64,000 nucleotides of DNA. Origin: Kofleriaceae bacterium. Lineage in GTDB: Bacteria > Myxococcota_A > Polyangia > Haliangiales > Haliangiaceae. The translations under genes were made by a program, and so were the position numbers. This document shows, one piece after another, positions 6,961 to 59,111 of this stretch. The stretch covers positions 256,001 through 320,000 of the forward strand of contig CBDCCZ010000018.1 of NCBI GenBank assembly GCA_965215005.1, in the 5' to 3' direction. Each line of letters starts with the position of its first letter. Positions within the stretch are counted from its first letter, which is position 1. Under the pieces are notes generated by a model, which saw only the letters and a list, made by a program, of their open reading frames with translations, made no database searches and was not told the DNA's origin.

Positions 6961-7082
6961 CTCCTTGCTGGTGACCAGCATATCGCAGTCGCCGCTGCGC
7001 TTCACGTCTTCGCCGTGAGCCACGTGAACACCGCCGCGCGAGTCGTGACGTGGTTGGCGGCCGCCCGGTGATGGCTACAAGC

Positions 7083-8000
7083 TCACGGCAGCTCGCTTGC
7101 CAGGCCGTCTTCGCGCCAAGTTTGCCAGTAGCGCTTGAACCGGCGCTGCAGGTGCTTGGGTCGCTCGGCATAAATCCGCGCTCCGAGGGAAAACGCCTCG
7201 CTGCGCAACACGCGCTGTCGCGCCGTAATCACGCCTGCGAGCAGCTCACGTTCGCGCTCACTGCCGAGGTCACGGCCATCGCCGTCGAGCAGCGCCCGTA
7301 GCTCGACGAGATCGTGATCGTCACCGAGGCATTCGCCCAGCGTCTTCACCTCGGCTGCCCACTTCTTCAGCGGCGCATCCCAAATATTGCGCACCAGCCG
7401 CAAGTGATAGAGATGGTACTTCACGCGCTTGCGCCACTCGTGGAACTGCTCGCCGCCCTCGTCCCGGGTGCAGCGCTCCATCGCCTCGCGGCCGCGCGCG
7501 TACGTCTTAATCAGCCCAGGTCCCACCGCGGCAAAGCGTTTTTCGGAGAGCCGCCAGGTAGCAACCCGCTCGCGGGCGAGCACGAGCGCGTCCTTGGCGA
7601 CGGACAGTTGATCGGCAGGCGATGGCCCGCCAGCAACCACCTCATCGCGGTACTCCTGCAGATCGCCTCGAAGCTCAGAGAACCCATCCCCCAGCTCGCC
7701 CGCAAACCGCGTTTCCAGCGCCGCCACCGTCTCGACGAAGGCGGCTGCATCGCGCGCGTCGCTGAGCTTACGAGCGATATCCCGCAGGCACGCGTTTTCG
7801 TGGTCGTAGCCGTCGAAGCCAGGACGCACCAGGCGAAGCAAGCCGCGCAGCTTCTTGCACCGCTTGCGCACCTGATGCACGGTTTCGTCGACGTTCAATT
7901 CTTCATCGGCTAGCTCCGCCAGCGCCTTGTCCAGCTGCTCGCAAGCAATGCGCCGCAGGCCCTCGGCGACCGACTCGTCCACTTCGAAGCGATAACTCAT
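7083..8000 (-). CDS. CHAD-domain (polyphosphate-binding) protein
   Basis: VHQVRKRCKKLRGLLRL, LSDARD, FHEWRKRVK and LGDDHDL motifs. Confidence 0.88.
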   Translation of the reverse strand: MSYRFEVDESVAEGLRRIACEQLDKALAELADEELNVDETVHQVRKRCKKLRGLLRLVRPGFDGYDHENACLRDIARKLSDARDAAAFVETVAALETRFAGELGDGFSELRGDLQEYRDEVVAGGPSPADQLSVAKDALVLARERVATWRLSEKRFAAVGPGLIKTYARGREAMERCTRDEGGEQFHEWRKRVKYHLYHLRLVRNIWDAPLKKWAAEVKTLGECLGDDHDLVELRALLDGDGRDLGSERERELLAGVITARQRVLRSEAFSLGARIYAERPKHLQRRFKRYWQTWREDGLASELP

Positions 8001-36575: not shown

Positions 36576-38030
36576 TCACGTAGCCAGGAGGGCCTCATGA
36601 GCCGCAACGGCGGCGGCATATACCTGTTTGAGCGGAACCGCGTTGGCCCGAGCGGCGGCACGACATGCTTCGTACTCCGGCGCAGCGTTGACGATGGTGG
36701 CGGCTAGGCGCGCGCGCTTGACCGCAATGCGGCCAAAGCGAGTTTCGACCTCGACGACCTCGCGCTCGAGGACGCGACGCTCCACGAGATCGAAGCGAAC
36801 GCCGATGCTGGTGGTCTCACGCAGCACGGCGGCGGTCGCTGCTTCGAGCCGCTCGACCGGCACGAGTGCAGAGAGCTGCCATGCCGGGCGCGACTTTTTC
36901 ATCGTGATGGAGGTCCACCAAACCTCGAGCGCTCCGGCGGAGAGCAGCTGCTCCTGCGCGTGCTCGCACAGCTCGGCGGGCATATCATCGATGTTGGCCT
37001 CGAGGCGATACAGCGCGCCGAACGCGGCAAACGGTGCTTCTGCGCCCGCGGCATTCGCTGAGCCGAGCTCGCTCGAGCCCGGCTGCGTTCGCGGACTCGA
37101 CACCACCCGTCCCACGGTGAGGCGCACGACGTTGGGACGATCCGCCAGCTCCAGGTCGCCGGCGCCGTAGCCGATCGCCAACGGCACCAGCGCCGGCATC
37201 GGCGCCCATTGCGTGACGGTTGCCGCGACGATGGCTGCACCGGTGGGGGTGCACAGCTCCTTGGCCACGCCGCCGCCCTCGATCACCGCGCCGGCCTCGC
37301 GCAAGATCTCGAGCGCCGCGGGAGAGGGCACCGGCATCCGGCCGTGGGCGCACCACACGGATCCGTGCCCCACCGCGACCGACGACGCGGTCACCGAGGC
37401 CGGCTCGAGCCACGCAAGCCCCGCCGCCACACCGACGATGTCGACAATGGAGTCGATGGCGCCGACCTCGTGAAACGTTACCTCCTGCACCGAGGTGCCA
37501 TGAAGCATCGCCTCCGCGCGCGCAACCCGCTCGAACATATCGAGCGCGCGAGCACGCACCGCTTCATCGAGCTCGGCGGTGACGAGACGGGCGCGAATAT
37601 CGGCCCAACGCGTGTGGCTATGGTCGTGCGCTCGTTCGTGCGCGTGATGCTCGTGCGCGTGATGCTCGTGCGCGTGATGCTCGTGCGCGTGATGCTCGTG
37701 CGCGTGATGCTCGTGCGCGTGATGCTCGTGCGCGTGATGCTCGTGCGCGTGATGCTCGTGCGCGTGATGCTCGTGCTCTACCCGGACCTTGACGTCGATC
37801 GCGGCCACGCCGCCCTTGAGCACCGCTGCCGCGCTGAGCCGATCTGGCTCGATTCCCATCGCCTCGACGGCCTCGCGCAGCACCGCCAGCGGCACACCGA
37901 GCGCCAACAACGCCCCCAGCGTCATATCGCCGGCGATACCGCTCACGCAGTCGAAATGCAGGTGCTGACCGCGCAGCTCTTCGCGCCGCCCCGGCGCCTC
38001 GCGGCTCGTTTCCATCACTGACGTTTCCAT
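36576..38030 (-). CDS. larC: Nickel pincer cofactor Ni-insertase LarC
   Basis: [15 protein letters not shown], His-rich tract, [48 protein letters not shown] and PEYE.C motifs. Full length in one frame. Confidence 0.95.
37636..37776. repeat. Perfect 15-bp tandem repeat x9 (TCGTGCGCGTGATGC) encoding (HEHHA)9 in LarC
   Basis: Nine identical units plus a partial unit, read directly from the sequence. Confidence 0.97.
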
Positions 38031-38036
38031 CACTGA
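38007..38036. repeat. 15-bp tandem duplication of the larB stop/larC start junction
   Basis: CGTTTCCATCACTGA x2, giving METSV-METS at the LarC N-terminus. Confidence 0.9.
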
Positions 38037-38806
38037 CTCACCTTGCGCGCGATCAACGATGCGGCCACCGCCGCGCCAAATCCATTGTCGATGTTGACCA
38101 CCGTGACCCCCGCCGAGCACGACGACAACATCCCCAGCAACGCCGCCAAGCCGCCCAGGCCAACCCCATAGCCAACGCTCGTCGGCACCGCAATCACCGG
38201 CGCCTCGATAAGGCCTGCCACCACCGACGGCAACGCCCCCTCCATGCCTGCCACCACCACCGCGACCTCCGCCGCGCGCAGCCGCTCGGTCACCGCCACC
38301 ACCCGATGCAGTCCGGCAACCCCGACATCGACGTGGCGCTCGACTCGATGCCCGAGAAACGCTGCAGTAAGCGCCGCTTCCTCGGCCACCGGCAAATCAC
38401 TAGTGCCCGCGGCCACCACCGCCACCAACCCAGGGCGCACCACTGCCTCCTCGGCAGGCACCACCAGCGCTTGCGCGAGCGCCTCATACCGCGCCGCCGG
38501 CAGCTCCTGCCGCACCGCCGCCGCTTTGTCTGCGCTCACTCGAGTCGCGAGCGCCCCTCGGCCGCCATCTGCCAAGGCCCGCAGAATCGCCGCGATTTGC
38601 GCCGCCGTCTTCCACTGCCCAAGCACCACTTCTGGCACCCCCGCGCGCACCTCGCGGTGATGATCCACCACCGCCATGTCGCCGGGTTGGCGCGCTTCGG
38701 CAAGCCGCTCGAATGGCAGCTGTCGCAACTCCTCTACGGCATCATCAATCTCGACGCCGCCGGCGCGCACCCGCTGTAATAACTGCTGCAACCGCTCTCT
38801 CGTCAT
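38030..38806 (-). CDS. larB: Nickel pincer cofactor biosynthesis protein LarB
   Basis: [48 protein letters not shown] and [11 protein letters not shown] motifs. Confidence 0.96.
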
Positions 38807-47386: not shown

Positions 47387-49248
<1,862 letters not shown>

Positions 49249-49250
49249 CG

Positions 49251-49276
49251 CTAGCTCCTGCTCCGGGAGGAGCTAG
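49251..49276 (-). promoter_or_regulatory. Hairpin sequestering the dnaK Shine-Dalgarno sequence
   Basis: Minus strand CTAGCTCCT-N8-AGGAGCTAG-CG-GTG places the AGGAG SD inside a 9-bp stem. Confidence 0.6.
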
Positions 49277-49421
49277 TCACGCGCGACGTCAGGCCGCACC
49301 ACGCTATCGCGATGCTCCCCGGTCGCCACGCCACCCGCGACTCACGAAAATCCTCGTGAGCCGCGCGATGCCGCCGGCGCTTGCCTGCGCTCGTTGCCGT
49401 CCTCATGAAACCTGCCCGCGC

Positions 49422-50156
49422 CTACGCGTTGCCGTTGCCTCCCTCGGCGGACCGCTCCCCGCTGTCAGCACCATTGGCCGATGGCGGCGGGGCCGCGGGC
49501 GCCTTGGCGACGATGACCAGCGCCGGCCGCAATAGCCGCTCGCCGATTTTGTAGCCGCGTTGCAGCTGCTGCACCACCACGCCGGGCGCATGCTCCGCGC
49601 TTTCCTGCTGGCCGATGGCCTCATGGACGTTGGGATCGAAGGGCTTGCCCGCCGCGTCCACCGCAAACACGTTGCACTTCTCGAGCGCTTGCTCGAACTG
49701 GCGAAGCACCAGCCGCACGCCCTCGATAAGGGCATTGGCCTCGGGGTCCTCGGCGTGCCCCTGCTGCTCGGCGTGTTGGACCGCGCGCTCGAGATTGTCG
49801 ATGACCGGCAGCATCTCGCGCAGCACCGAGCCCCGCGCTTCGACGCGGGCATCGTCGAGCTCGCGGCGGGTTCGCTTGCGCAGGTTTTCCATATCGGCGG
49901 TGGCGCGTAGCACGCGTTCCCAGTGCTCTTGCTTCTCGCGCTCGACCGTCGCCAGCGTTTGCTGGAGCTCAACCAGTCGCGCGCTGTCGTCGGCGGGCTC
50001 GGCCTTGGCGGGCGGCTCGGTCTCGACCTCAATCGCGACGTCGCCGTCCTCCGGCGATGCTTGGCTTGCGGAGTCGGTGGCCTCGGCGATATCTGGGGCC
50101 TCGACGCGGTTGTCATCGACGGGATGGGATTGCCCGTTGGTCGACTTTTCGCTCAT
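49422..50156 (-). CDS. grpE: Nucleotide exchange factor GrpE
   Basis: [27 protein letters not shown] and QRGY...RLLRPA.V motifs. Confidence 0.96.
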
Positions 50157-50217
50157 TTGCTTAGAGATTACACGAAAGGCCGCCAGAGGCGCGCGGCGGT
50201 GCCCGGACTTCGCGCGC

Positions 50218-51288
50218 CTACAGCTCGCCCATGATCCGCGACACCAGATCGGCGGTAAAATCGACCACCGACATGACCTTGCCGTAGTTCATTCGCATCG
50301 GGCCAATCACCGCAACGGCGCCGATGGGACGGTCATCGGGACCATAAGGCATCGACACCACGGACGACTCGCCGAGAGGCCCAAAGGCGGTTTCGGGGCC
50401 CAGCAGAACCTGAATCCCCGAGGCGCCGAGGGTACGGTCGAGGAGCCGCACCAGCACTTCTTTGTCCTCGAGCGCCGCCAGCAGCTCGCGCATGCGTTCG
50501 AAGTGCTCGCGTTCGCCCGCCCGGCTCGAATCGAGGAGGTTTGCCCCGCCGGTGACGATGATTTCGGCATCGCGCGTGGTCGCGTCGAGCGCCAGCTTAC
50601 TGAGCCGAAGCGCCTCGGAAACCAGCGAGTCGTAGCGATTCTTCTGCTCGCCGAGCTCACGCAGCACCCGCTCACGCACCTCGCTCAGAGTCAGACCGCC
50701 GAGCAGCTCATTGAGATAGTTGTGGATGCGCTCGAGGCGACTGTCATCGATGCCGAGCTCCGCAGCAACCAGCTTGTTCTCAATGGTTCCCTCGCTGGTG
50801 ACCAGGATGGCCAGCAGCTTGCCGCCGTGCAGCGGCACGAACTCGATGTGTTGAAAGCGCTGCAGCTCCGGGCGAGGCGCCAGGACCACCCCGGCGTGCG
50901 AGGTAACGTGCGACAGCATGCGCGAGGTGCGCGGGATGATGGCGTCGAGGTCGAGCGACTCGATGCCGCAGCGGGATCGAATCTCCTCTTTCTCGCGCGG
51001 CGTCAGGCTGCGAATTTTGAGCAGCGAGTCGATGAAGAAGCGCAGCCCGCTATCGGTTGGCACTCGCCCGGCGGAGGTGTGCGGCTGCTCGAGAAGACCG
51101 AGGTCTTCGAGGTCCGCCATCACGTTGCGAACGGTCGCCGGAGATAGGTCGATCTGGTGCTTACGAGTCACGGTGCGCGAGCCAACCGCCTGGCCGCTCT
51201 GCAGATACTCGGAGACCACCGCGGCGAGAATCTTGCGTGCACGACGGTTGAGCGCACCACTCATGGCTTGGCTGGAGTCAGACGGCAT
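50218..51288 (-). CDS. hrcA: Heat-inducible transcription repressor HrcA
   Basis: [28 protein letters not shown] and VIGPMRMNY motifs. Alternative start 51264. Confidence 0.96.
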
Positions 51289-51306
51289 ACGGCGTAACTT
51301 CAGAGT

Positions 51307-52428
51307 TTAGCGTGCCGCGCTCGCAACGCGCGTGGCGATTGCATCGGCGCACAAAAAGCCGCGCAAGGTCGGGCGCAAACGGCCGGATCGAGGCTCGGCG
51401 AGGCCCGCTGCGAGCAACGCATCGGCCAACCCTGGAAAGGTGCGCAAACGCTGCAGGGCGACGCCATCGCTGGTGCGCATCCCGAGCCACACCCGATCTT
51501 CGGCGTATTCTCGAGGAGTTACGATGATTTCCTCGGCGACTGCATGATCTGGGTCTCGCAGATAGGAAGCCGTCGACCGCGCGTTGGTCCAGCGCCGACC
51601 GCCACCGTCGGTGGTGCGAACGAATGATGCAGCGCCGCACCCGAGGCCGAGATATTCGGCGCCGGTCCAATACAGCGAGTTGTGCACCGCGCGATGACCT
51701 GGGCGTGCGTAGGACGAGATCTCATAGTGCTCATAGCCGCGCGCGCTCAGGAGATGATGGGTGCGCTCGTAGAGGTCGGCGAGCTCGTCGGGATCGCGCA
51801 CCGCGAGCTCGCCGCGCGCCGCGCGCTTGCCGAATACGGTGCGCTCTTCGATGGTTAGCTCGTAGACCGATAGGTGCGGAGCGTCGCTGTCGGCGGCGCG
51901 CTCGACGCTCTCGACCGTGGAACCCGAGCCGGGCGCGCCGAGGATCAAGTCGGCCGACAGAGACTGAAAACCGGCCGCAAGCGCCGCGGTGAGCGCGCGG
52001 GCGCCATCACCCATGCGATGATCGCGGCCCAGTGCCACGAGCTCGCCGGCATCATAGGACTGCACGCCGATCGAAAGGCGATTGACCCCCGCCTGCAACC
52101 ACGCCTGCATATTTGCCGGAGTGCAGTCGGTTGGGTTGGCCTCGAGCGTGACCTCACGCGGCACACCGGCAAATCGGGCTCGGACTGCCGCGATGACCTC
52201 GGCGATGCACTCGGGCGCCCACAGCGAGGGCGTGCCGCCGCCGAAATAGATCGAGACCAGCTGCCGGCCCTCGAGCAGCGGCGCCCGCGTCTCGAGCTCT
52301 CGCAGCACCGCATCGCGATAGCGGGTATGCGCGATCGCGCCTTCCGGGGCGACGGTCACCGCAAAGTCGCAGTAAGGACACAGGTTGCGACAATATGGAA
52401 AATGGATATAAACGCCGAATTGCCGCAC
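51307..52428 (-). CDS. hemW: Radical SAM heme chaperone HemW
   Basis: YIHFPYCRNLCPYCDF, YFGGGTPS, EANP, NRLSIGVQS, YEISSYA and HNSLYW motifs. Start set at GTG 52428. Confidence 0.93.
   Translation of the reverse strand: MRQFGVYIHFPYCRNLCPYCDFAVTVAPEGAIAHTRYRDAVLRELETRAPLLEGRQLVSIYFGGGTPSLWAPECIAEVIAAVRARFAGVPREVTLEANPTDCTPANMQAWLQAGVNRLSIGVQSYDAGELVALGRDHRMGDGARALTAALAAGFQSLSADLILGAPGSGSTVESVERAADSDAPHLSVYELTIEERTVFGKRAARGELAVRDPDELADLYERTHHLLSARGYEHYEISSYARPGHRAVHNSLYWTGAEYLGLGCGAASFVRTTDGGGRRWTNARSTASYLRDPDHAVAEEIIVTPREYAEDRVWLGMRTSDGVALQRLRTFPGLADALLAAGLAEPRSGRLRPTLRGFLCADAIATRVASAAR
52385..52412 (+). promoter_or_regulatory. Candidate sigma70 promoter for iscS embedded in hemW
   Basis: TTGCGA-N16-TATAAA lies in an AT-rich patch 28 nt upstream of the iscS TTG. 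Confidence 0.45.
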
Positions 52429-52440
52429 GTCTGAGCACCG

Positions 52441-53595
52441 TTGACCGAGAACCGCTACATATACCTCGATAACGCCGCCACCACCCGGCTCGCGGCCCCC
52501 GTCGCCGAGTGCATGCACCGCTGCGCCATGCACGAATTCGCCAATCCTGCCTCGCTGCATCACGCGGGTATCGCGGCGGAGCGACGCGTGAAGGGCGCGC
52601 GCGAGCAACTGCTGGCGGCGATTGGCGACGCTGGCGGAACACGTGGCGAGCTGATTTGGACCTCGGGCGGCACGGAAGCCGACGCGCTGGGCATCCTCGG
52701 TGGCGGCCGCGCCAACGCGGCGCGCGGTCGCCACGCGCTGGTTGCCGTAAGTGCGCATCCTGCGGTGCGTGAAAACGCCAAGCTGCTTGCGCGCGAAGGC
52801 TGGGAGGTGGAGACGCTGCCGGTGGATGACATGGGCCGCCTGGACCCGCAGCAAGTGGCCGCGGCGGTGCGAGCTGACACCACGCTGCTCGCGCTGATGC
52901 TCGTCAACAATGAGCTCGGCACGATTGATGATGTCGCCGCCATCGCGCACGCGGCTCGGCAGCGAGCCAAGGCGCTTCACGTGCACTGCGATGCGGTGCA
53001 GGCACTCGGCAAGGTCGAGCTTGACGTGGCGAGCTTGGGCGTCGACTCGCTGGCGCTTGCTGCGCACAAGCTGCACGGGCCGAAAGGCGTAGGCGCGCTG
53101 TGGAAGGCGGCTAGCGCGCGGCTCGTGCCGCTGTGGGGCGGCGGCGGGCAACAGCGGCAGGGGCGCGCGGGCACCCTCAATGTGCCCGGCATCGCCGGCT
53201 TTGGCGTCGCTGCCGAGCTCGCGGTGAGCGAGCGCTCAGAGTTGCAAGAACGGTGGCGGGGCTTCGCTGCAGTATTGGCGGCGGCGGCGGCCGAGTCAGC
53301 AGTCGAGCACCGCGAAAATGCCGCGCATGGGCCGCGTGCAGCGCATATCGTGAGCCTGTCGTTTCGTGGCGTTCCTGCCGAGCCGCTGCTGCATGTCCTG
53401 GAAAGCCGCGGCGTGCTCGTGTCTGCTGGCTCAGCGTGCGCCTCGCGCTCGCGCTCCCCTTCGCCAGTGCTCCAGGCGATCGGCGTCGGGCCCGAATGGG
53501 GCACCTTGCGCTTCTCCTTTGGCCGCGAGACCACCTCTTCAGACGTTTCACGCGCCGCTCGGATCTTGATTGATGCCATTGCAGACTTCCGCTGA
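52441..53595 (+). CDS. iscS: Cysteine desulfurase (IscS/NifZ-like, ThiI-associated)
   Basis: YLDNAATT, NPASLH, TSGGTE, VNNELG, HCDAVQ, AHKLHGPKG and SAGSAC motifs. Confidence 0.93.
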   Translation: MTENRYIYLDNAATTRLAAPVAECMHRCAMHEFANPASLHHAGIAAERRVKGAREQLLAAIGDAGGTRGELIWTSGGTEADALGILGGGRANAARGRHALVAVSAHPAVRENAKLLAREGWEVETLPVDDMGRLDPQQVAAAVRADTTLLALMLVNNELGTIDDVAAIAHAARQRAKALHVHCDAVQALGKVELDVASLGVDSLALAAHKLHGPKGVGALWKAASARLVPLWGGGGQQRQGRAGTLNVPGIAGFGVAAELAVSERSELQERWRGFAAVLAAAAAESAVEHRENAAHGPRAAHIVSLSFRGVPAEPLLHVLESRGVLVSAGSACASRSRSPSPVLQAIGVGPEWGTLRFSFGRETTSSDVSRAARILIDAIADFR

Positions 53596-53754
53596 CCAAC
53601 CGACCTCATCCTGTTGCGCGTGTCCGAGATCTTCCTCACGCGAGACCACCTCTTCAAACATTTCACGCGCCGCCCGGACCTCGATTGATGCCATTGCAGA
53701 CTTCCGCTGAACCAACCGACCTCATCCTGTTGCGCGTATCCGAGATCTTTCTCA
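53524..53754 (+). repeat. Diverged 115/116-bp tandem duplication spanning the iscS stop and thiI start
   Basis: Copies at 53524-53638 and 53639-53754. Manual alignment gives 7 substitutions and one 1-nt indel. Confidence 0.95.
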
Positions 53755-54872
53755 AAGGAAGAAATCGCCGCAGCTTCTTTCAAGCACTCGTGCGAAACGC
53801 GCGGCGGCTGGTGAGCGACCTCGACGGCGTGAGCGTGCACGCGCGCTACATGCGCGTGGCCGTCGAGCATCCCCCTGCGTTGCGCCAGGCGTGCCTCGAC
53901 CGCCTCGCGCGAGTGTTTGGCATGGCGTCCATGTCTCCCGCCGTGCGCGTCGAGCCCAGCGTCGAAGCCATCGCAAGCGCGGCCGTCGAGCAAGCGCACG
54001 CCCTTACAGAGGGCAGTTTCAAAGTTGAGTCCAAACGACGCGACAAGCGGTTTCCGCTTACCTCGCAAGAGCTTTCACGGCAAGTCGGAACCGCAGTCGC
54101 TTTGGCCACTGAGCGCCCCGTCGACGTGCACCACCCTAACCACGTTCTGCGCATCGAGGTCGGCGATGAAGACGCCTACGTCTTCTCCCGCGTCATCGAA
54201 GGTCCGAGCGGCTTGCCCGTAGGCACCGCTGGCAATGTCACTTTGCTACTCTCCGGCGGCATCGACTCGCCCGTTGCGGGCTGGTCTGCTATGCGCCGCG
54301 GTTGTCGATTGAACGCTGTCTACTTTCACTCGTTTCCGTACACCGGCGATAAGACTAAAGAGAAAGTCCTCGATCTAGCCAGAATCCTGGCCCCATGGCA
54401 GGGCCGCCTCGCCGTGCATATCGTTCATTTCACCGACGTGCAAAAGCAGCTCCGCGCTGCCGCCCGCCCCGACCTCGCCGTGCTCATGTATCGCCGCATG
54501 ATGATGCGCGTCGCCAGCCGCATCGCCGCCCGCGAGCACTGCCTCGCCCTCATCACCGGCGACAACCTCGGCCAAGTCGCCTCCCAAACCCTCGAAAACC
54601 TCCGCGTCGTCGAAGACGCCGCCACCCTGCCCGTCCTCCGCCCCCTCCTCACCTTCGACAAGCTCGACATCATCGCCCGCGCCCGCGCCATCGGCACCTT
54701 CGACACCTCCACCCTCCCCTACGAAGACTGCTGCTCCCTCTTCGTCCCCAAACACCCTGCCACCCGTGCCCGCATCCGCGACCTCACCCGCGCCGAAGCC
54801 GGCCTCGACCTCGAAACCCTCACCACCACCCTCACCGACTCCACCGAGCGCATCATCCTCGGCGACAGCTAA
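53688..54872 (+). CDS. thiI: tRNA 4-thiouridine synthase ThiI (no rhodanese domain)
   Basis: EIFLKGRNR, THUMP, LLSGGIDSPVA, TGDNLGQVASQT, LRPL and EDCC motifs. Confidence 0.96.
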   Translation: MPLQTSAEPTDLILLRVSEIFLKGRNRRSFFQALVRNARRLVSDLDGVSVHARYMRVAVEHPPALRQACLDRLARVFGMASMSPAVRVEPSVEAIASAAVEQAHALTEGSFKVESKRRDKRFPLTSQELSRQVGTAVALATERPVDVHHPNHVLRIEVGDEDAYVFSRVIEGPSGLPVGTAGNVTLLLSGGIDSPVAGWSAMRRGCRLNAVYFHSFPYTGDKTKEKVLDLARILAPWQGRLAVHIVHFTDVQKQLRAAARPDLAVLMYRRMMMRVASRIAAREHCLALITGDNLGQVASQTLENLRVVEDAATLPVLRPLLTFDKLDIIARARAIGTFDTSTLPYEDCCSLFVPKHPATRARIRDLTRAEAGLDLETLTTTLTDSTERIILGDS

Positions 54873-55200
54873 CGCGGCGCAGGAACCCTTCCCGCAGCCT
54901 CCCTCGAGCATCGCCGTTGCGCTCGGTCGCGCAATCCCGCTCCCAGCCCCCGCCTACGAGCTTCACCAGCGCCCCCGTCCCCTCACTCGCCGCGAATCAA
55001 CAAGCGCCCACTGTTCGTCACCAGCGCACAATCCTCATCTCCACTACAAACCTGCACTCGCTGCAACCCCTCGGCCCCATCCTTTCCAACCGCCCCCGTA
55101 ACTAAGCCCTGCCCCCACCGTCGCGCCCATCACGGGCGCTAATCGCCTCGCCGCAGTGCCGTCGATCCCCACGGCGGGGGACGCGTACGCACAGGGATCC

Positions 55201-55404
55201 TCACGGGCGGAGCGCGGCGTAATGGGCCGCCACCTCGGCGGGGGACCATTCGTGGTTGTAGACGTTGACCTCGTCGATGTCGCCCAGGAAGTAACCCGAG
55301 CTCGAGTAGCGGCCCACCGTGACCTCGTGCTCCCCGCGGGCGATCGGCAGGGACGGTGTTTCCTGTTCGCCGACCAACGTCCCGTCGATGTAGAGACGAA
55401 TCAC
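55201..55404 (-). pseudogene. LamG/concanavalin-A-like domain C-terminal fragment
   Basis: IRLYIDG...VGR...YFLGDIDEVNVYNHEWSPAEVAAHY is a typical LamG ending; only about 67 codons remain. Confidence 0.6.
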
Positions 55405-57164
55405 GCCGTGCCCGTCTCCGCCAAACCGGTTGTGGGTGCCGCTCGATCCAGAGGTGCGTGGCGGGATTCGAGGGAGTGGCTGTCGCGATTCGCGATCCGC
55501 TTGGCGGTCAATCTGCGCAGGCGGCGGTGGCTGATCGTGAATCCGTTGATGGCACCGGCGCTGTTGCGGGTGAAGGTAACGGTGCCCAGTGGGCCGCCGA
55601 CGAAGCGGTCTCCTCCGACGGGCTCGAGGGGGAGTTGCATCTGCCGTGGCCAGTGTAGGCTGAGCGTGTCGCCGTTGAGACGCACGGTAAAGGTGGCGTC
55701 GATCTCATCGATTCGATACTCGCCGACGAATGCCGACAGGTCCGATGTGGCGGGTCGAGGCAGAGTCACTTGTTGGAAGACGCGCGGCTGGGGCCAGTAG
55801 TCGAAGATGCGGACCTCGCGCGGAGCTTCATCCGCAGGGGTGGTGAAGCTCCAATGTTCCACGTCATCGCCAGCGCGGAACTCGCCCTCTCCCAAGGGCA
55901 CGAGCACCTCGAGCGCCGGGGGAGCACCGCGCCGACGGAGCGCTCCGTCGCGCCATTCCACCTGGACGACCTCATCGGAATGCGAGCTCCAATAGGTTCC
56001 GGAAAATTGCCTCTGCTCTGCCTCCGGCACCGCCGTGGCGGGAACGGTTGTCTTGGCTAGGCGGTCGCCGAGATACAGCGCTGCAATCTTGCGAGTGAGC
56101 TCATGCGGTGATGCAGTGGCGGCATTGCAGAGCGCGACGACCGTGAGTTGCTGGTCTGGAAAGGTGACTAGATCCGCGCGGTATCCGGCGTCGATTCCCT
56201 GATGGCCCTCGCTGCGGAGCCCCCGGTGCGTCTCCACTCGGCGGCCCTTGGCGTAGCCGGTGGACGTTCCGTCGTTCAACGTGCCGGGGGTTCGCATCCA
56301 GTCCACCAGTGCTTTGCCGCCGACGCGGGGGTGGTCGAAGTTCTGCTCCCACTTCAGCAGATCGCCCACGGTGGTGAAAAGGCTGGTCGAGCCGTAATGA
56401 TCAAAGACTGGAATACTGATCCGCCACTGGCCATCTGGACCCAGGCGATAGGCAGACGTCCTTCCCGGTACGAGCTCCGTATGATCGACATGGAAGTGTG
56501 TGTCGTTCATAGCGAGTGGCTTGAAGATGCGCTCGGCGGCGAGCTGCCTCAGCGTTTGGCCGGACGCGCGCTTCACAATCTCGGCGAGCAGCGTGTAGCC
56601 CATGTTGTTGTAGAGCGCCTCAGTGCCGGGCTGAAAATTCAGCCCCCGCTGCTTCGCGGCAACCCACAACACATCGTCTGTGGCCATCACATCATCGTCT
56701 CTCCACCCCGCGAGAGCGAGCAGCACTCCCTGCTCCCGTAAGCCGCTGGTGTGGTGAAGCAAGTGTGAGACTGTGATGGGCTTGCCGTAGTCGGGTAGCT
56801 CAGGCAAGTAGGTTCGAATGTCGTCTGTGAGCGATAGCGTTCCGTCTTGCGCCAACAGGCCTATTGCAAGGGCGGTGAACTGCTTGGCGATAGAGGCAGC
56901 GTGGAAGATTGAAGTGGGTGTGATCGGAACGGCGTGTTCTAGGTCGGCCATGCCGTAGCCGCGCACGTAGTCCACGACGCCGTGCTGGGCGATTCCCACC
57001 GCACAACCAGGGGTAGTCGGTCGATTCCAGGGCTCGAAGAGCGCGTCCACCTGGGCATGGCGGTCAGCGGGAGCACGAGGCGCAAGAGAGACTGGCGCTG
57101 CGGGGCGCGCGGCGCAGGCCGCCGCAGTGAGCACCGCCAGGAGGAGAAGTTGGCTTGGTTGCAT
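55401..57164 (-). CDS. Serine hydrolase, beta-lactamase/D-aminopeptidase-like lipoprotein
   Basis: Lipobox AAAC; SIAK (SxxK), LLHHTSG, YNNMGY, IFKPLAM and H.G motifs; C-terminal beta domains. Confidence 0.9.
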   Translation of the reverse strand: MQPSQLLLLAVLTAAACAARPAAPVSLAPRAPADRHAQVDALFEPWNRPTTPGCAVGIAQHGVVDYVRGYGMADLEHAVPITPTSIFHAASIAKQFTALAIGLLAQDGTLSLTDDIRTYLPELPDYGKPITVSHLLHHTSGLREQGVLLALAGWRDDDVMATDDVLWVAAKQRGLNFQPGTEALYNNMGYTLLAEIVKRASGQTLRQLAAERIFKPLAMNDTHFHVDHTELVPGRTSAYRLGPDGQWRISIPVFDHYGSTSLFTTVGDLLKWEQNFDHPRVGGKALVDWMRTPGTLNDGTSTGYAKGRRVETHRGLRSEGHQGIDAGYRADLVTFPDQQLTVVALCNAATASPHELTRKIAALYLGDRLAKTTVPATAVPEAEQRQFSGTYWSSHSDEVVQVEWRDGALRRRGAPPALEVLVPLGEGEFRAGDDVEHWSFTTPADEAPREVRIFDYWPQPRVFQQVTLPRPATSDLSAFVGEYRIDEIDATFTVRLNGDTLSLHWPRQMQLPLEPVGGDRFVGGPLGTVTFTRNSAGAINGFTISHRRLRRLTAKRIANRDSHSLESRHAPLDRAAPTTGLAETGTA

Positions 57165-57187
57165 GCGAGCTCGTAGCGGCTACATCG

Positions 57188-58733
57188 CTACTTCTGCTCG
57201 AAGACGATGGGAAACTGCGTAGAGATGCCCTCGGTGGAGCGGCGAAACTGCCATTTGCGCATGCGCGCTAGCAGGCACTTGCCAAGCTCGTCGTTGGCGT
57301 GGTCGGAGAGGTCGACGTTGGTGACGGTTCCGGCGGCGTTGACGATCATGCGGACGTCGATGCGGCGCACGCGCAAGAACGGATCGGCTTTGAGGGCGCG
57401 CTCGTAGCAGCGTCGTGTGCCGGTAGCGTACTTGCGTGAGACGGAAACGATGTCGAGCGGCGACAGGGGCTGGATGGCATCGTCGCCAAGGGTGATTTCG
57501 CTGAGGCCGCCGCCGCCGGAGGGTTTGGTGGGCGTGGTGACGCGGCCGGTGTTGACGCGATCGCGGCTGGTGGTGCGCGCTCCGCCTGCTCTAGTGGGTT
57601 GGCTATCGTCGGCTTTGGAGCCGACGCGCGGCAGAACGCGCTCGGGGTCGCCCAATCGATAGCCGAGCTCTTCGAGGCTGCCGGCGATGCCGCCGCCCGA
57701 GCCGGCGCGCAGCTCACTGTCGTTGGACTGGCCACGCAGCAGCAAGAACAACAGCAACGCGGCGATCGCGGTGATGCCGACGCCACCGATCAACAGCAGC
57801 GGCATTCGCGAGTGCCGGGGCGAGCTCGTGAGGATGCTCGGGGAGGCATCGGCGATGGCCGCGTCGGAGAGCGCCCGCTCATCGAGAGCACCGGCGATCA
57901 TCGGCGCAGCACCAGCAACGGGCAGCGACGCCGCGGGACCGGTGCCGCGACCAACACGATCGTTGCCCTTACTCTCACCACTGGCGCGCGGAGTCGTCGG
58001 CGCCATCAAGTCGCGCAGGTTGACGACCCGCGACACCTCACCGATGTCGAGATCGAGGCCGTCCTCGCCATCGCCGGCGGAGCTCTCGGTTCTGGGCCGC
58101 GCCTCGGGAAATAGCGCCCCTCCGGAGGAGCCGTTGCGGGTGGTCGAGCGCGCGGGCGAAGAGCTAGCGCCAAACAACGAGCCGTCGCCGCTGGTGGACC
58201 CGCGCGCTGGTGCGGCGGTGTGCGCCGCTGTTTGCGCGGTGTCGGCGCGGTCGCGCAAGCCGCGAAAGTGGCTGATCTTGTCGACCGGTAGCCAATCGTC
58301 CGAAGCCTTCGCTCCAACAAAACAGCTCCGCCCCGACCGGTTTGCCGGCAACCCATTCGCACGCGTCGGTCACCGAGTACGGCCCCGCCTGCACGCCGTC
58401 GATCGAGACGTACCAGTCGGCAGCCAAGCTCTTGGGTGCCACCAAGCTATCGGACGCGCTCGGGTCGCTCGACTTCTTCAGAACGTCCTCGAACGCGCCG
58501 CGCAGCGGCGAGGGGACGCCTGGATCGGTGTCGGGTGAGGCGCCGCGACGAATGCGGGCGCCGACCTCACTGGCACCGCGCGCGCGGTCATCGGCGGCGG
58601 CGCTGGTGTCGCTGGCTTCACGTACGGTGACGACCGCCGAGCAATTCTTGCAGCGAATCTTGAGGATCTTGCCGCGCACGCGATCGTCGCCGATCGAGTA
58701 ACGCGTCTTGCAACGATCACATTGAAACTTCAT
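57188..58733 (-). pseudogene. AgmX/GltJ-like protein (Zn ribbon-GYF_2-TM-TonB-C-like) split by a +1 frameshift at ~58300
   Basis: Frame 1: MKFQCDRCKTRY...KIRCKNC...WYVSIDGVQAGP...CWSEGF. Frame 2 continues DDWLPVDKI...TM...CYERALKADP...CL...WQF. There is one extra G in TTC-G-GAC. Confidence 0.8.
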
Positions 58734-59111
58734 TCGTCGACGTGCAGTGGAGGGAGCGTCGGCCGTCGCTGGAGCGGACGGCGCTGGCTGCGTCGTTCTT
58801 GGTTTTAGCAAACGCCCGTAGATAAATGAAGAAGCGCGCTCCCAGAACCAGCGCGATAGACGCGAGTCGTGCGGCGAATGTGGGAGTTCGCATGACGCTG
58901 TTGCAGCGCTCTTACCCGCCGCATACGGCAAGCGGCCGGCGCAACCGGGGCTTATGGTGGCACGACAGGTTCGACGGCCGGTGTTTCCCCGCAACCTGCC
59001 GGAGCGGCGCACAAATCTCGTCCTGCGCGAGCTAGCGTGATAGGCGTTCCGACTCGCAGCCGCGGAGCCGGTCGATGCTGGCCCGTCGCCACTTCGCAGG
59101 CACCGCCGAGG

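Follow-up and report, generated by a model that had tools for sequence, protein, structure and literature searches.

We analysed a 64,000-nucleotide stretch of DNA from a Kofleriaceae bacterium (contig CBDCCZ010000018.1, positions 256,001 to 320,000; hereafter the window, with positions counted from its first letter) in which thiI, the gene for tRNA 4-thiouridine synthase, is followed by a short non-coding segment and then, all on the opposite strand, by a LamG-like remnant, a serine hydrolase gene and a gltJ/AgmX-like gene (Table 1). The 3' end of thiI and the non-coding DNA behind it form a tract that is extremely rich in C and poor in G on the forward strand. We found that tracts of this kind recur in the genome (designated G000 among the genomes compared here), where they build up over a kilobase or more and stop sharply at variable DNA, and we probably see in them the trace of recombination at such sites.

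Table 1. Features of the thiI/gltJ locus, in window positions; genes were called with our own codon model rather than a standard caller.
Feature	Position	Strand	Remarks
IscS/NifS-like cysteine desulfurase, upstream of thiI	52441..53595	+	Below curated cut-offs
115/116-bp tandem duplication, iscS end/thiI start	53524..53754	+	Reproduced by a contig from another assembler
thiI, tRNA 4-thiouridine synthase	53688..54872	+	TIGR00342, 355 bits (cut-off 264.5); the ATG start at 53688 is our reading
C-rich/G-poor ramp, left arm	54404..55172	+	Maximal-scoring segment, score 48.7, second of 72; sharp 3' end faces the variable site
Truncated LamG/concanavalin-like remnant	55201..55410	-	PF13385, 43 bits; covers only model positions 90-151 of 151
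Serine hydrolase (beta-lactamase fold + DUF3471)	55401..57164	-	Pfam
Right-arm mirror ramp, 3' end of the gltJ/AgmX-like gene	57188..57600	-	C-rich on -, G-rich on +; NF033768

An exact count of third positions in the last 110 thiI codons gave C97, A8, G3 and T2, with GAA used over GAG (5 vs 1) and CAA over CAG (2 vs 0), just as the original prediction, made from the letters of the window, had claimed from a manual count. Four-fold degenerate sites among these codons read C69, G1, A0 and T2. The C-rich segment measures 769 bp, its GC skew lies between -0.35 and -0.57 in 100-bp steps across 54501-55100, and its non-coding part (54873-55172) has a skew of -0.43; the iscS-like gene upstream of thiI, which served as a control, shows ordinary codon use with C and G at about 1:1 in four-fold sites. 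Over 500 bp the skew at thiI reaches -0.47, the strongest in the 6.2-Mb genome, topping the 42 stretches that exceed |0.28| among 123,597 overlapping 500-bp windows (99.9th percentile 0.32). Likewise, thiI has the highest C and the lowest G at third codon positions (C3 and G3) among 3,029 genes of 250 or more codons. The gene thus lies beyond the range of convergent gene ends; four of the five most G-poor gene ends are convergent, but such ends show no C-richness as a group (mean G3 37.2 vs 37.8 for tandem ends), and a general effect of convergence is rejected as the cause.

This pattern was absent from all 22 orthologs aligned, in which 27-56 of the 110 codons of the matching stretch end in G. 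The recoding also reaches the protein, as had been predicted of this conserved housekeeping enzyme: ThiI departs from the consensus 12 times at the 75 conserved columns of its last 110 residues (orthologs 2-11 times), with 9 of the 12 departures losing G or gaining C by our reading of the codons, and its C-terminal helix carries Thr in place of Ala at three columns where Ala is found in 14/14, 14/14 and 12/14 close orthologs. Constraint on the ThiI protein as the source of the skew is rejected by the same comparison. The C-rich non-coding part gave no Rfam match and no structured RNA, promoter or terminator when these were sought; it had been described as decayed, a description for which 54873-55172 gave no sign. 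The truncated LamG remnant lies just beyond. An assembly artefact is unlikely, given that a contig from a different assembler spans 49209-58300 with 0 differences, although that contig probably derives from the source sample and is thus not a second strain.

The original prediction had further placed a single switch of polarity near 55.15 kb, from a C-rich to a G-rich forward strand. Its C-rich half was confirmed, whereas the G-rich half is weak over 55173-55403 (+0.065) and over the hydrolase (+0.088 for 55404-57164), and the mirror image sits instead in the 3' end of the gltJ-like gene, where 57188-57600 has a skew of +0.21 vs +0.01 for the remainder of the gene and the last 130 codons, in gene sense, have four-fold C60 and G10. 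The thiI and gltJ-like tracts are therefore a pair pointing inward, with 2.3 kb of cargo between them, rather than one switch point. The gltJ-like gene (57188-58733) is itself split in two frames, a zinc-ribbon N-terminus at 58342-58733 and an AgmX/PglI C-terminus at 57188-58351, and the contigs of the sequencing run break around 58300-58844, such that a frameshift and an assembly error are both possible. The presence of a gliding-motility domain at the locus points to Myxococcota.

The cargo is variable. The hydrolase is patchily distributed, with matches at E<=1e-40 in 3 of 30 relatives (30-39% identity), and its tail overlaps the LamG remnant, which may represent earlier cargo, partly overwritten. 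Comparing five genomes of different genera, and hence across genera rather than within a species, we found that the distance between thiI and gltJ is ~30 bp in G011 and G015, 2.3 kb in G000, 9.7 kb in G006 and 24.4 kb in G002, while G012 gave no orthologous gltJ match. Because the spacing varies in this way, we take the junction to be a recurrent insertion site and the skewed tracts to be its host-side flanks. The predicted variation of gene content at a recombination or insertion hotspot thus holds across the family, and variable content between the same two core genes, the hallmark of transfer hotspots, is found here across genera. No close relative of the locus was found in metagenomes or genomes, the best match having 66% protein identity.

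The skew at thiI had been taken for a localized oddity, but a segment scan of the genome returned 72 C-rich/G-poor tracts, compared with 1 and 5 in two block shuffles. Each tract has one sign and is indifferent to gene direction (3,871 tract codons lie in same-strand and 3,676 in opposite-strand genes), in line with the strand-coordinated process that had been proposed, and the encoded amino acids are shifted (P 1.8x and T 1.6x; G 1.8x and V 1.4x). With the tracts lined up by the 3' end of their C-rich strand, the skew goes from 0 to -0.44 over ~1.5 kb and then back to 0 at once; individual ramps are ~1-1.5 kb long and stop sharply at variable DNA. Since alignment at the 3' end partly builds in such a step, we used anchors that are independent of skew, namely islands, tRNAs and Rhs genes.

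Islands defined by low GC had an inward C-rich flank at 31 of 351 edges and an outward one at 6, with a background of ~1% for each (p=3e-5). Of 70 tracts, 47 had a lower GC past their 3' end (p=5e-5). Upstream of first-in-cluster tRNA and transfer-messenger RNA (tmRNA) genes, the DNA was C-rich in 13 of 40 cases and G-rich in 0, compared with 0.9% and 1.4% of 4,902 protein genes; the integrase-adjacent tRNA clusters, three in number, all fell among the 13 C-rich ones (post hoc p=0.029). All ten Rhs core ends found carry a ramp, with G3 down to 0.06-0.18 at the DPxG motif, these genes being paralogs and hence not independent cases. The 3' end of the C-rich strand points at the variable site. 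Ramps were not enriched at the contig ends of G000 (1 vs 3 of 120), and inspection of tract ends by eye revealed no shared motif.

The ten Rhs core ends lie on contigs C1, C27, C31, C37, C46 and C61 and belong to mosaic genes with swapped tips, among them Tox-REase-7, Ntox10 and HNH-EHHH; two short orphan-like modules accompany these genes. The amino-acid composition of Rhs proteins was rejected as a cause of their ramps, as third positions ramp too and the Rhs genes of relatives do not. Of nine Rhs pairs compared, two did not align and were excluded. In one pair, identity is 54-70% across 3.6 kb and rises to 91-98% in the final 1.5 kb ahead of DPxG; in another it is 92-100% as far as DPxG and 41% past it; and a third has 39-57% identity, then 76% in the last 300 bp before DPxG and 98% just after. 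These steps in identity at DPxG indicate that arms have been homogenised and tips swapped where the ramps lie, and the Rhs ramps coincide with the recombined stretch. An association with gene conversion is thus seen in the Rhs ramps, the thiI tract being single-copy.

The strand contrasts within tracts follow a simple rule. At four-fold sites they amount, in log units, to 2.9 for C/G, 1.3 for A/G, 1.6 for C/T, 1.6 for C/A and 0.03 for A/T, and at two-fold sites to 1.8 for A/G and 2.1 for C/T, so that a single ranking on the inward strand, C > A = T > G, fits both site classes. The corresponding four-fold contrasts between replication strands are C/G 0.25, A/G 0.22, C/T 0.21, C/A 0.03 and A/T 0.18. 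Because the shape of the tract contrasts differs from that of replication and lacks an A/T skew, we conclude that the tracts re-orient G:C pairs and are neither a scaled-up replication skew nor the product of plain C-to-T damage. All sequence contexts show a loss of G, which is smallest before A. Selection for G-quadruplexes or for Chi/RecA motifs was rejected, with GGG at 1,575 vs 2,391 +/- 45 in shuffles, G4 motifs at 16 vs 40 and TGG odds of 0.87.

Recent substitutions look ordinary in a strict repeat test and in Rhs trios but are ambiguous overall, and the polarising test is underpowered. The strict test on repeats within ramps, with data from 3 of the 72 regions, found G lost at 4/486 and C lost at 7/633 sites (p=0.76), and 18 substitutions were counted over 1,728 sites of ramp repeats, compared with 26 over 2,465 control sites. 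Trios of Rhs genes gave C>T 8, G>A 3 and T>C 3, with same-contig pairs on C31 and C61 confounded by overlapping windows.

Ramps are patchily distributed among relatives. Among the 30 best-scoring tRNA loci per genome, out of 39 matches in G041, 56 in G006, 80 in G011 and 66 in G050, C-rich upstream regions were found at 9/25, 3/24, 2/24 and 0/27, respectively, and regions of opposite sign at 0 in all four. G041, which belongs to another genus than G000, has multi-kilobase ramps at tmRNA and tRNA-Ala, likewise with C up and G down. Upstream of tmRNA, a clear ramp was seen only in G000 and G041 among 30 order-level loci, with a partial one in G044, and 29 phylum-level loci contained no clear ramp. 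Since the ramped G041 and the unramped G050 share a genus, the trait changes fast. Several contigs of G041 (among C34, C71, C72, C47 and C25) end right after a tRNA or tmRNA gene, in some cases with a ramp in front of it, which is what variation within the population at those sites would lead one to expect.

Taken together, these observations lead us to read the thiI tract as the footprint of repeated recombination in the conserved flanks of a variable site, with strand-biased fixation, a reading to which we assign a probability of about 0.5. Its parts differ in strength. The geometry of the tracts, their ramp and their coincidence with recombined Rhs arms are observed, and an association of the tracts with recombination at variable sites is highly probable; a biased conversion step, acting through the resolution of mismatches in heteroduplex, is put forward more tentatively. 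Cargo would be swapped by homologous recombination in the flanks, and each exchange would include the bases next to the junction while fewer would reach outward, producing a ramp with a sharp inner edge. In what are the least certain steps, the heteroduplex strands would hold fixed roles relative to the junction, and mismatches would be resolved unequally, those containing G efficiently and those containing C poorly, such that G:C pairs would be driven into one orientation. C:C mismatches are poorly repaired. The process would be a bias in fixation (orientation-biased gene conversion) rather than a higher mutation rate, and would be strong enough to fix the mildly deleterious change of Ala to Thr in ThiI. 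Unequal mismatch resolution is our preferred reading, since a single base ranking suits every class of site, as a fixation bias predicts, and new mutations appear normal.

Published work, here and below as far as its text was accessible to us, offers precedents for several of these steps. Recombination ends decay exponentially on both flanks of a selected cassette, and repair efficiency depends on the type of substitution (PMC3375284); an exponential decay of exchange ends would give the shape of the ramp. Core genes that flank hotspots recombine more, and exchange of cassettes via the flanks is documented at hotspots (PMC5635113).

Several points weigh against this interpretation. In the same pneumococcal study, mismatch repair had no effect on the number or length of recombined segments (PMC3375284), and as the direction of a repair bias is set by the strand that bears the repair signal, the model can give either sign. 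At thiI itself, recombination and biased fixation are deduced rather than observed, searches having found one sequencing run and no same-species genome. An inward tract is absent at most island edges (314/351), and mirror tracts are only weakly enriched, with 21 against 9 of 58 at distances of up to 12 kb (p=0.046) and p=0.48 at up to 4 kb. A hotspot alone is not sufficient for a ramp: G006 carries its 9.7-kb insertion between thiI and gltJ without one, none of the 27 tRNAs of G050 is ramped though three adjoin integrases, and Rhs homologs of relatives ramp in 0/11 cases (the motif was missing from 2 of the 13 loci). Genes for MutS, MutL, ComEC, DprA and DinB-like proteins occur in all genomes tested and do not separate ramped from unramped ones. 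Finally, two sets of substitutions would suit a mutational bias equally well. One comes from a looser repeat test on two loci (G>A 7/85 vs C>T 1/128), so that the excess of G>A that the original prediction expected appears as a leaning in this test and is missing from the strict one on three loci. The other comes from the tandem duplication that separates the overlapping iscS stop and thiI start, whose copies differ by 7 transitions and a 1-base indel and whose second, dead copy of the iscS end has two G>A and three T>C changes.

Error-prone resynthesis, the main rival, is a possible but rather unlikely alternative, in which breaks or gaps at the variable site would be resected and refilled by a low-fidelity polymerase of DinB or DnaE2 type, with misinsertions favouring G on one of the new strands or C on the opposite one and the length of resection setting the ramp. 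Double-strand breaks in E. coli do create DinB-dependent hotspots that are maximal within 2 kb, extend to both sides and are independent of the direction of transcription (PMC3607216), and genes for a second DnaE and for DinB-like polymerases are present. The spectrum of the iscS/thiI duplication would also fit, as would the tandem repeats found in 12 of 45 ramps vs 3.1 expected, a count that is partly circular, as a C-rich repeat raises the score of a tract. However, substitutions in ramp repeats are neither biased nor clearly more frequent than in controls, Rhs paralogs are more alike inside the ramp, not less, and unramped genomes carry the same polymerases.

Damage to cytosines of the G-rich strand in its single-stranded state, such as in the 3' tails of incoming DNA, with fixation as C-to-T and C-to-G, is improbable, and C-to-T damage on persistent single-stranded DNA, which the original prediction had offered, is poorly supported as the main cause; a damage route dominated by C-to-G is conceivable. 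Two-fold sites do shift C>T and A>G on the G-rich strand, and the main family-4 uracil glycosylase, which five relatives carry at 202-214 bits, went undetected in G000 (genome 92.8% complete), where a weaker paralog scores (C18:276907-277440, best 137 bits). Yet G041 possesses this glycosylase and has ramps nonetheless, and the four-fold contrast of 0.03 for A/T against 2.9 for C/G leaves no excess of T over A at such sites. Neither the C-to-T excess nor the context preference of deaminase-type hypermutation was detected, the loss of G being weakest where a TC-preferring deaminase would act, and recent substitutions are unbiased in the strict repeat test.

Selection for Rho loading sites, that is, for C-rich, G-poor RNA that halts transcription into foreign DNA, is very improbable. 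An excess of C over G with no A/T bias is the signature of rut sites, and the make-up of the tracts matches it; G000 has a full rho gene (689 bits; C27:59482-60717), which is divergent in G006, and most of the G-poorest gene ends are convergent. The ramped G041 (90% complete) nevertheless gave no rho match by TIGR00767, nor did G011 and G036, convergent ends are not C-rich in general, and the ramps exceed 1 kb, where a rut site needs ~100 nt, and run upstream of tRNAs and through translated genes, covering coding DNA of both directions equally rather than untranslated RNA of one direction. An amplified replication skew, from short outward replication out of integrated elements, is the least credible explanation: the C-rich left and G-rich right arms have the polarity of an origin and 36 of the 45 top tracts share the sign of their contig's skew, but the contrast pattern of leading and lagging strands (C/G 0.25, A/T 0.18, C/A 0.03) has a different shape from that of the tracts (2.9, 0.03, 1.6), the sign of 18 among 49 outlier windows runs counter to that of replication once the contig mean is removed, and no sign of an origin was noted at Rhs tips or in the 2.3-kb cargo, where none was searched for directly.

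The closest published counterpart of these tracts are GRINS (2021, PMC8256042), tracts of intense skew tied to gene conversion by an unknown mechanism, in whose description single-copy skewed regions are also mentioned. We applied their definition, namely a length >500 bp, an absolute skew averaging >0.15 for GC and for TA (150-nt windows, step 30) and a copy of >80% identity over >500 bp. The thiI tract, at 769 bp and a mean absolute GC skew of 0.43, resembles GRINS in length and GC skew, but its TA skew is 0.10 (background 0.12-0.14) and it has no copy in the 92.8% complete genome; the correlation of GC and TA skew, typical of GRINS though outside the formal definition, is r=0.14. It is thus single-copy and not a member of the class. 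A copy of >500 bp accompanies 6 of 45 tracts, thiI being among the 39 without, and the full definition fits 3 of 45, all of them Rhs. Both kinds of tract share the scale of ~1 kb, an intense skew that is strongest at third positions and a shift of amino acids toward Pro/Thr or Gly/Val, whereas the reported correlation of 0.70 between GC and TA skew compares with a median of 0.08 over 44 tracts of G000. In G000 a tract keeps one sign, ramps up to a sharp inner edge and has a polarity that is fixed toward tRNAs, islands and Rhs tips; none of these traits figures in the description of GRINS, so far as its accessible text goes.

Other known systems overlap with the tracts in part. Transfer hotspots (Oliveira et al. 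2017, PMC5635113; Touchon et al. 2009, PMC2617782) likewise have variable cargo between conserved genes and recombination in the flanks, but the reports deal with the rate of recombination, with diversity and with GC-biased conversion, and a strand-oriented ramp of G and C is absent from them. The break hotspots of E. coli (Shee et al. 2012, PMC3607216) are similarly symmetric, kilobase-scale and independent of the direction of transcription, but concern a mutation rate measured with a frameshift reporter, with no compositional skew, whereas no raised or biased recent mutation was seen in the tracts of G000. Islands have been linked to switches of GC skew (Du et al. 2011, PMC3148964), although in 100-kb windows and with the skew assigned to foreign DNA, while that of G000 lies in the host flank on a 1-kb scale. 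We found no literature on inward-polar skew ramps at the flanks of tRNAs, Rhs genes or islands in a search whose coverage fell short of most subscription journals, and the GRINS supplement may hold related cases. The present analysis adds an inward polarity that is fixed at tRNAs, islands and Rhs tips, together with the ramp, the four-fold rule restricted to G:C, the effect on single-copy core genes and the patchy distribution.

For GRINS-type skews, which were published without a known cause, G000 adds anchors that are fixed (the 5' ends of tRNAs, DPxG in Rhs genes and the edges of islands), a fixed polarity, a measurable length and a simple base rule, and the presence of ramped and unramped genomes in one genus (G041 and G050) makes the cause testable by comparative genomics. 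A non-adaptive force that recodes a housekeeping enzyme would mislead scans of codon usage and selection, and ramps may mark hotspots of gene exchange in uncultured bacteria known from one genome. More speculatively, and with considerable doubt, orientation-biased gene conversion could in some bacteria flip G:C pairs within homology arms while leaving GC content as it is, override purifying selection in core genes, switch on and off between sister lineages and cause GRINS-type skews generally, making the position, direction and tract length of hotspots readable from a single genome.

A second C-rich tract in the window, at 37848-38675 (score 25), covers a gene and the start of another that we take to be LarB-like and LarC-like, and includes a 15-bp His-rich repeat; as the 3' end of the tract shows no evident cargo of low GC, the island rule does not explain it. 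In G094, of the same phylum, 20-kb skews of up to |0.30| run along whole stretches of contigs (loci L453-L460), about 10 times the replication skew of G000; as they are contig-wide, we set them aside as a different phenomenon from the ramps. Lastly, a family of dispersed ~120-bp repeats (74-95% identity) occurs at locus L103, around 6990-7110, and in about 70 other places of G000, alongside a second family of ~140 bp.

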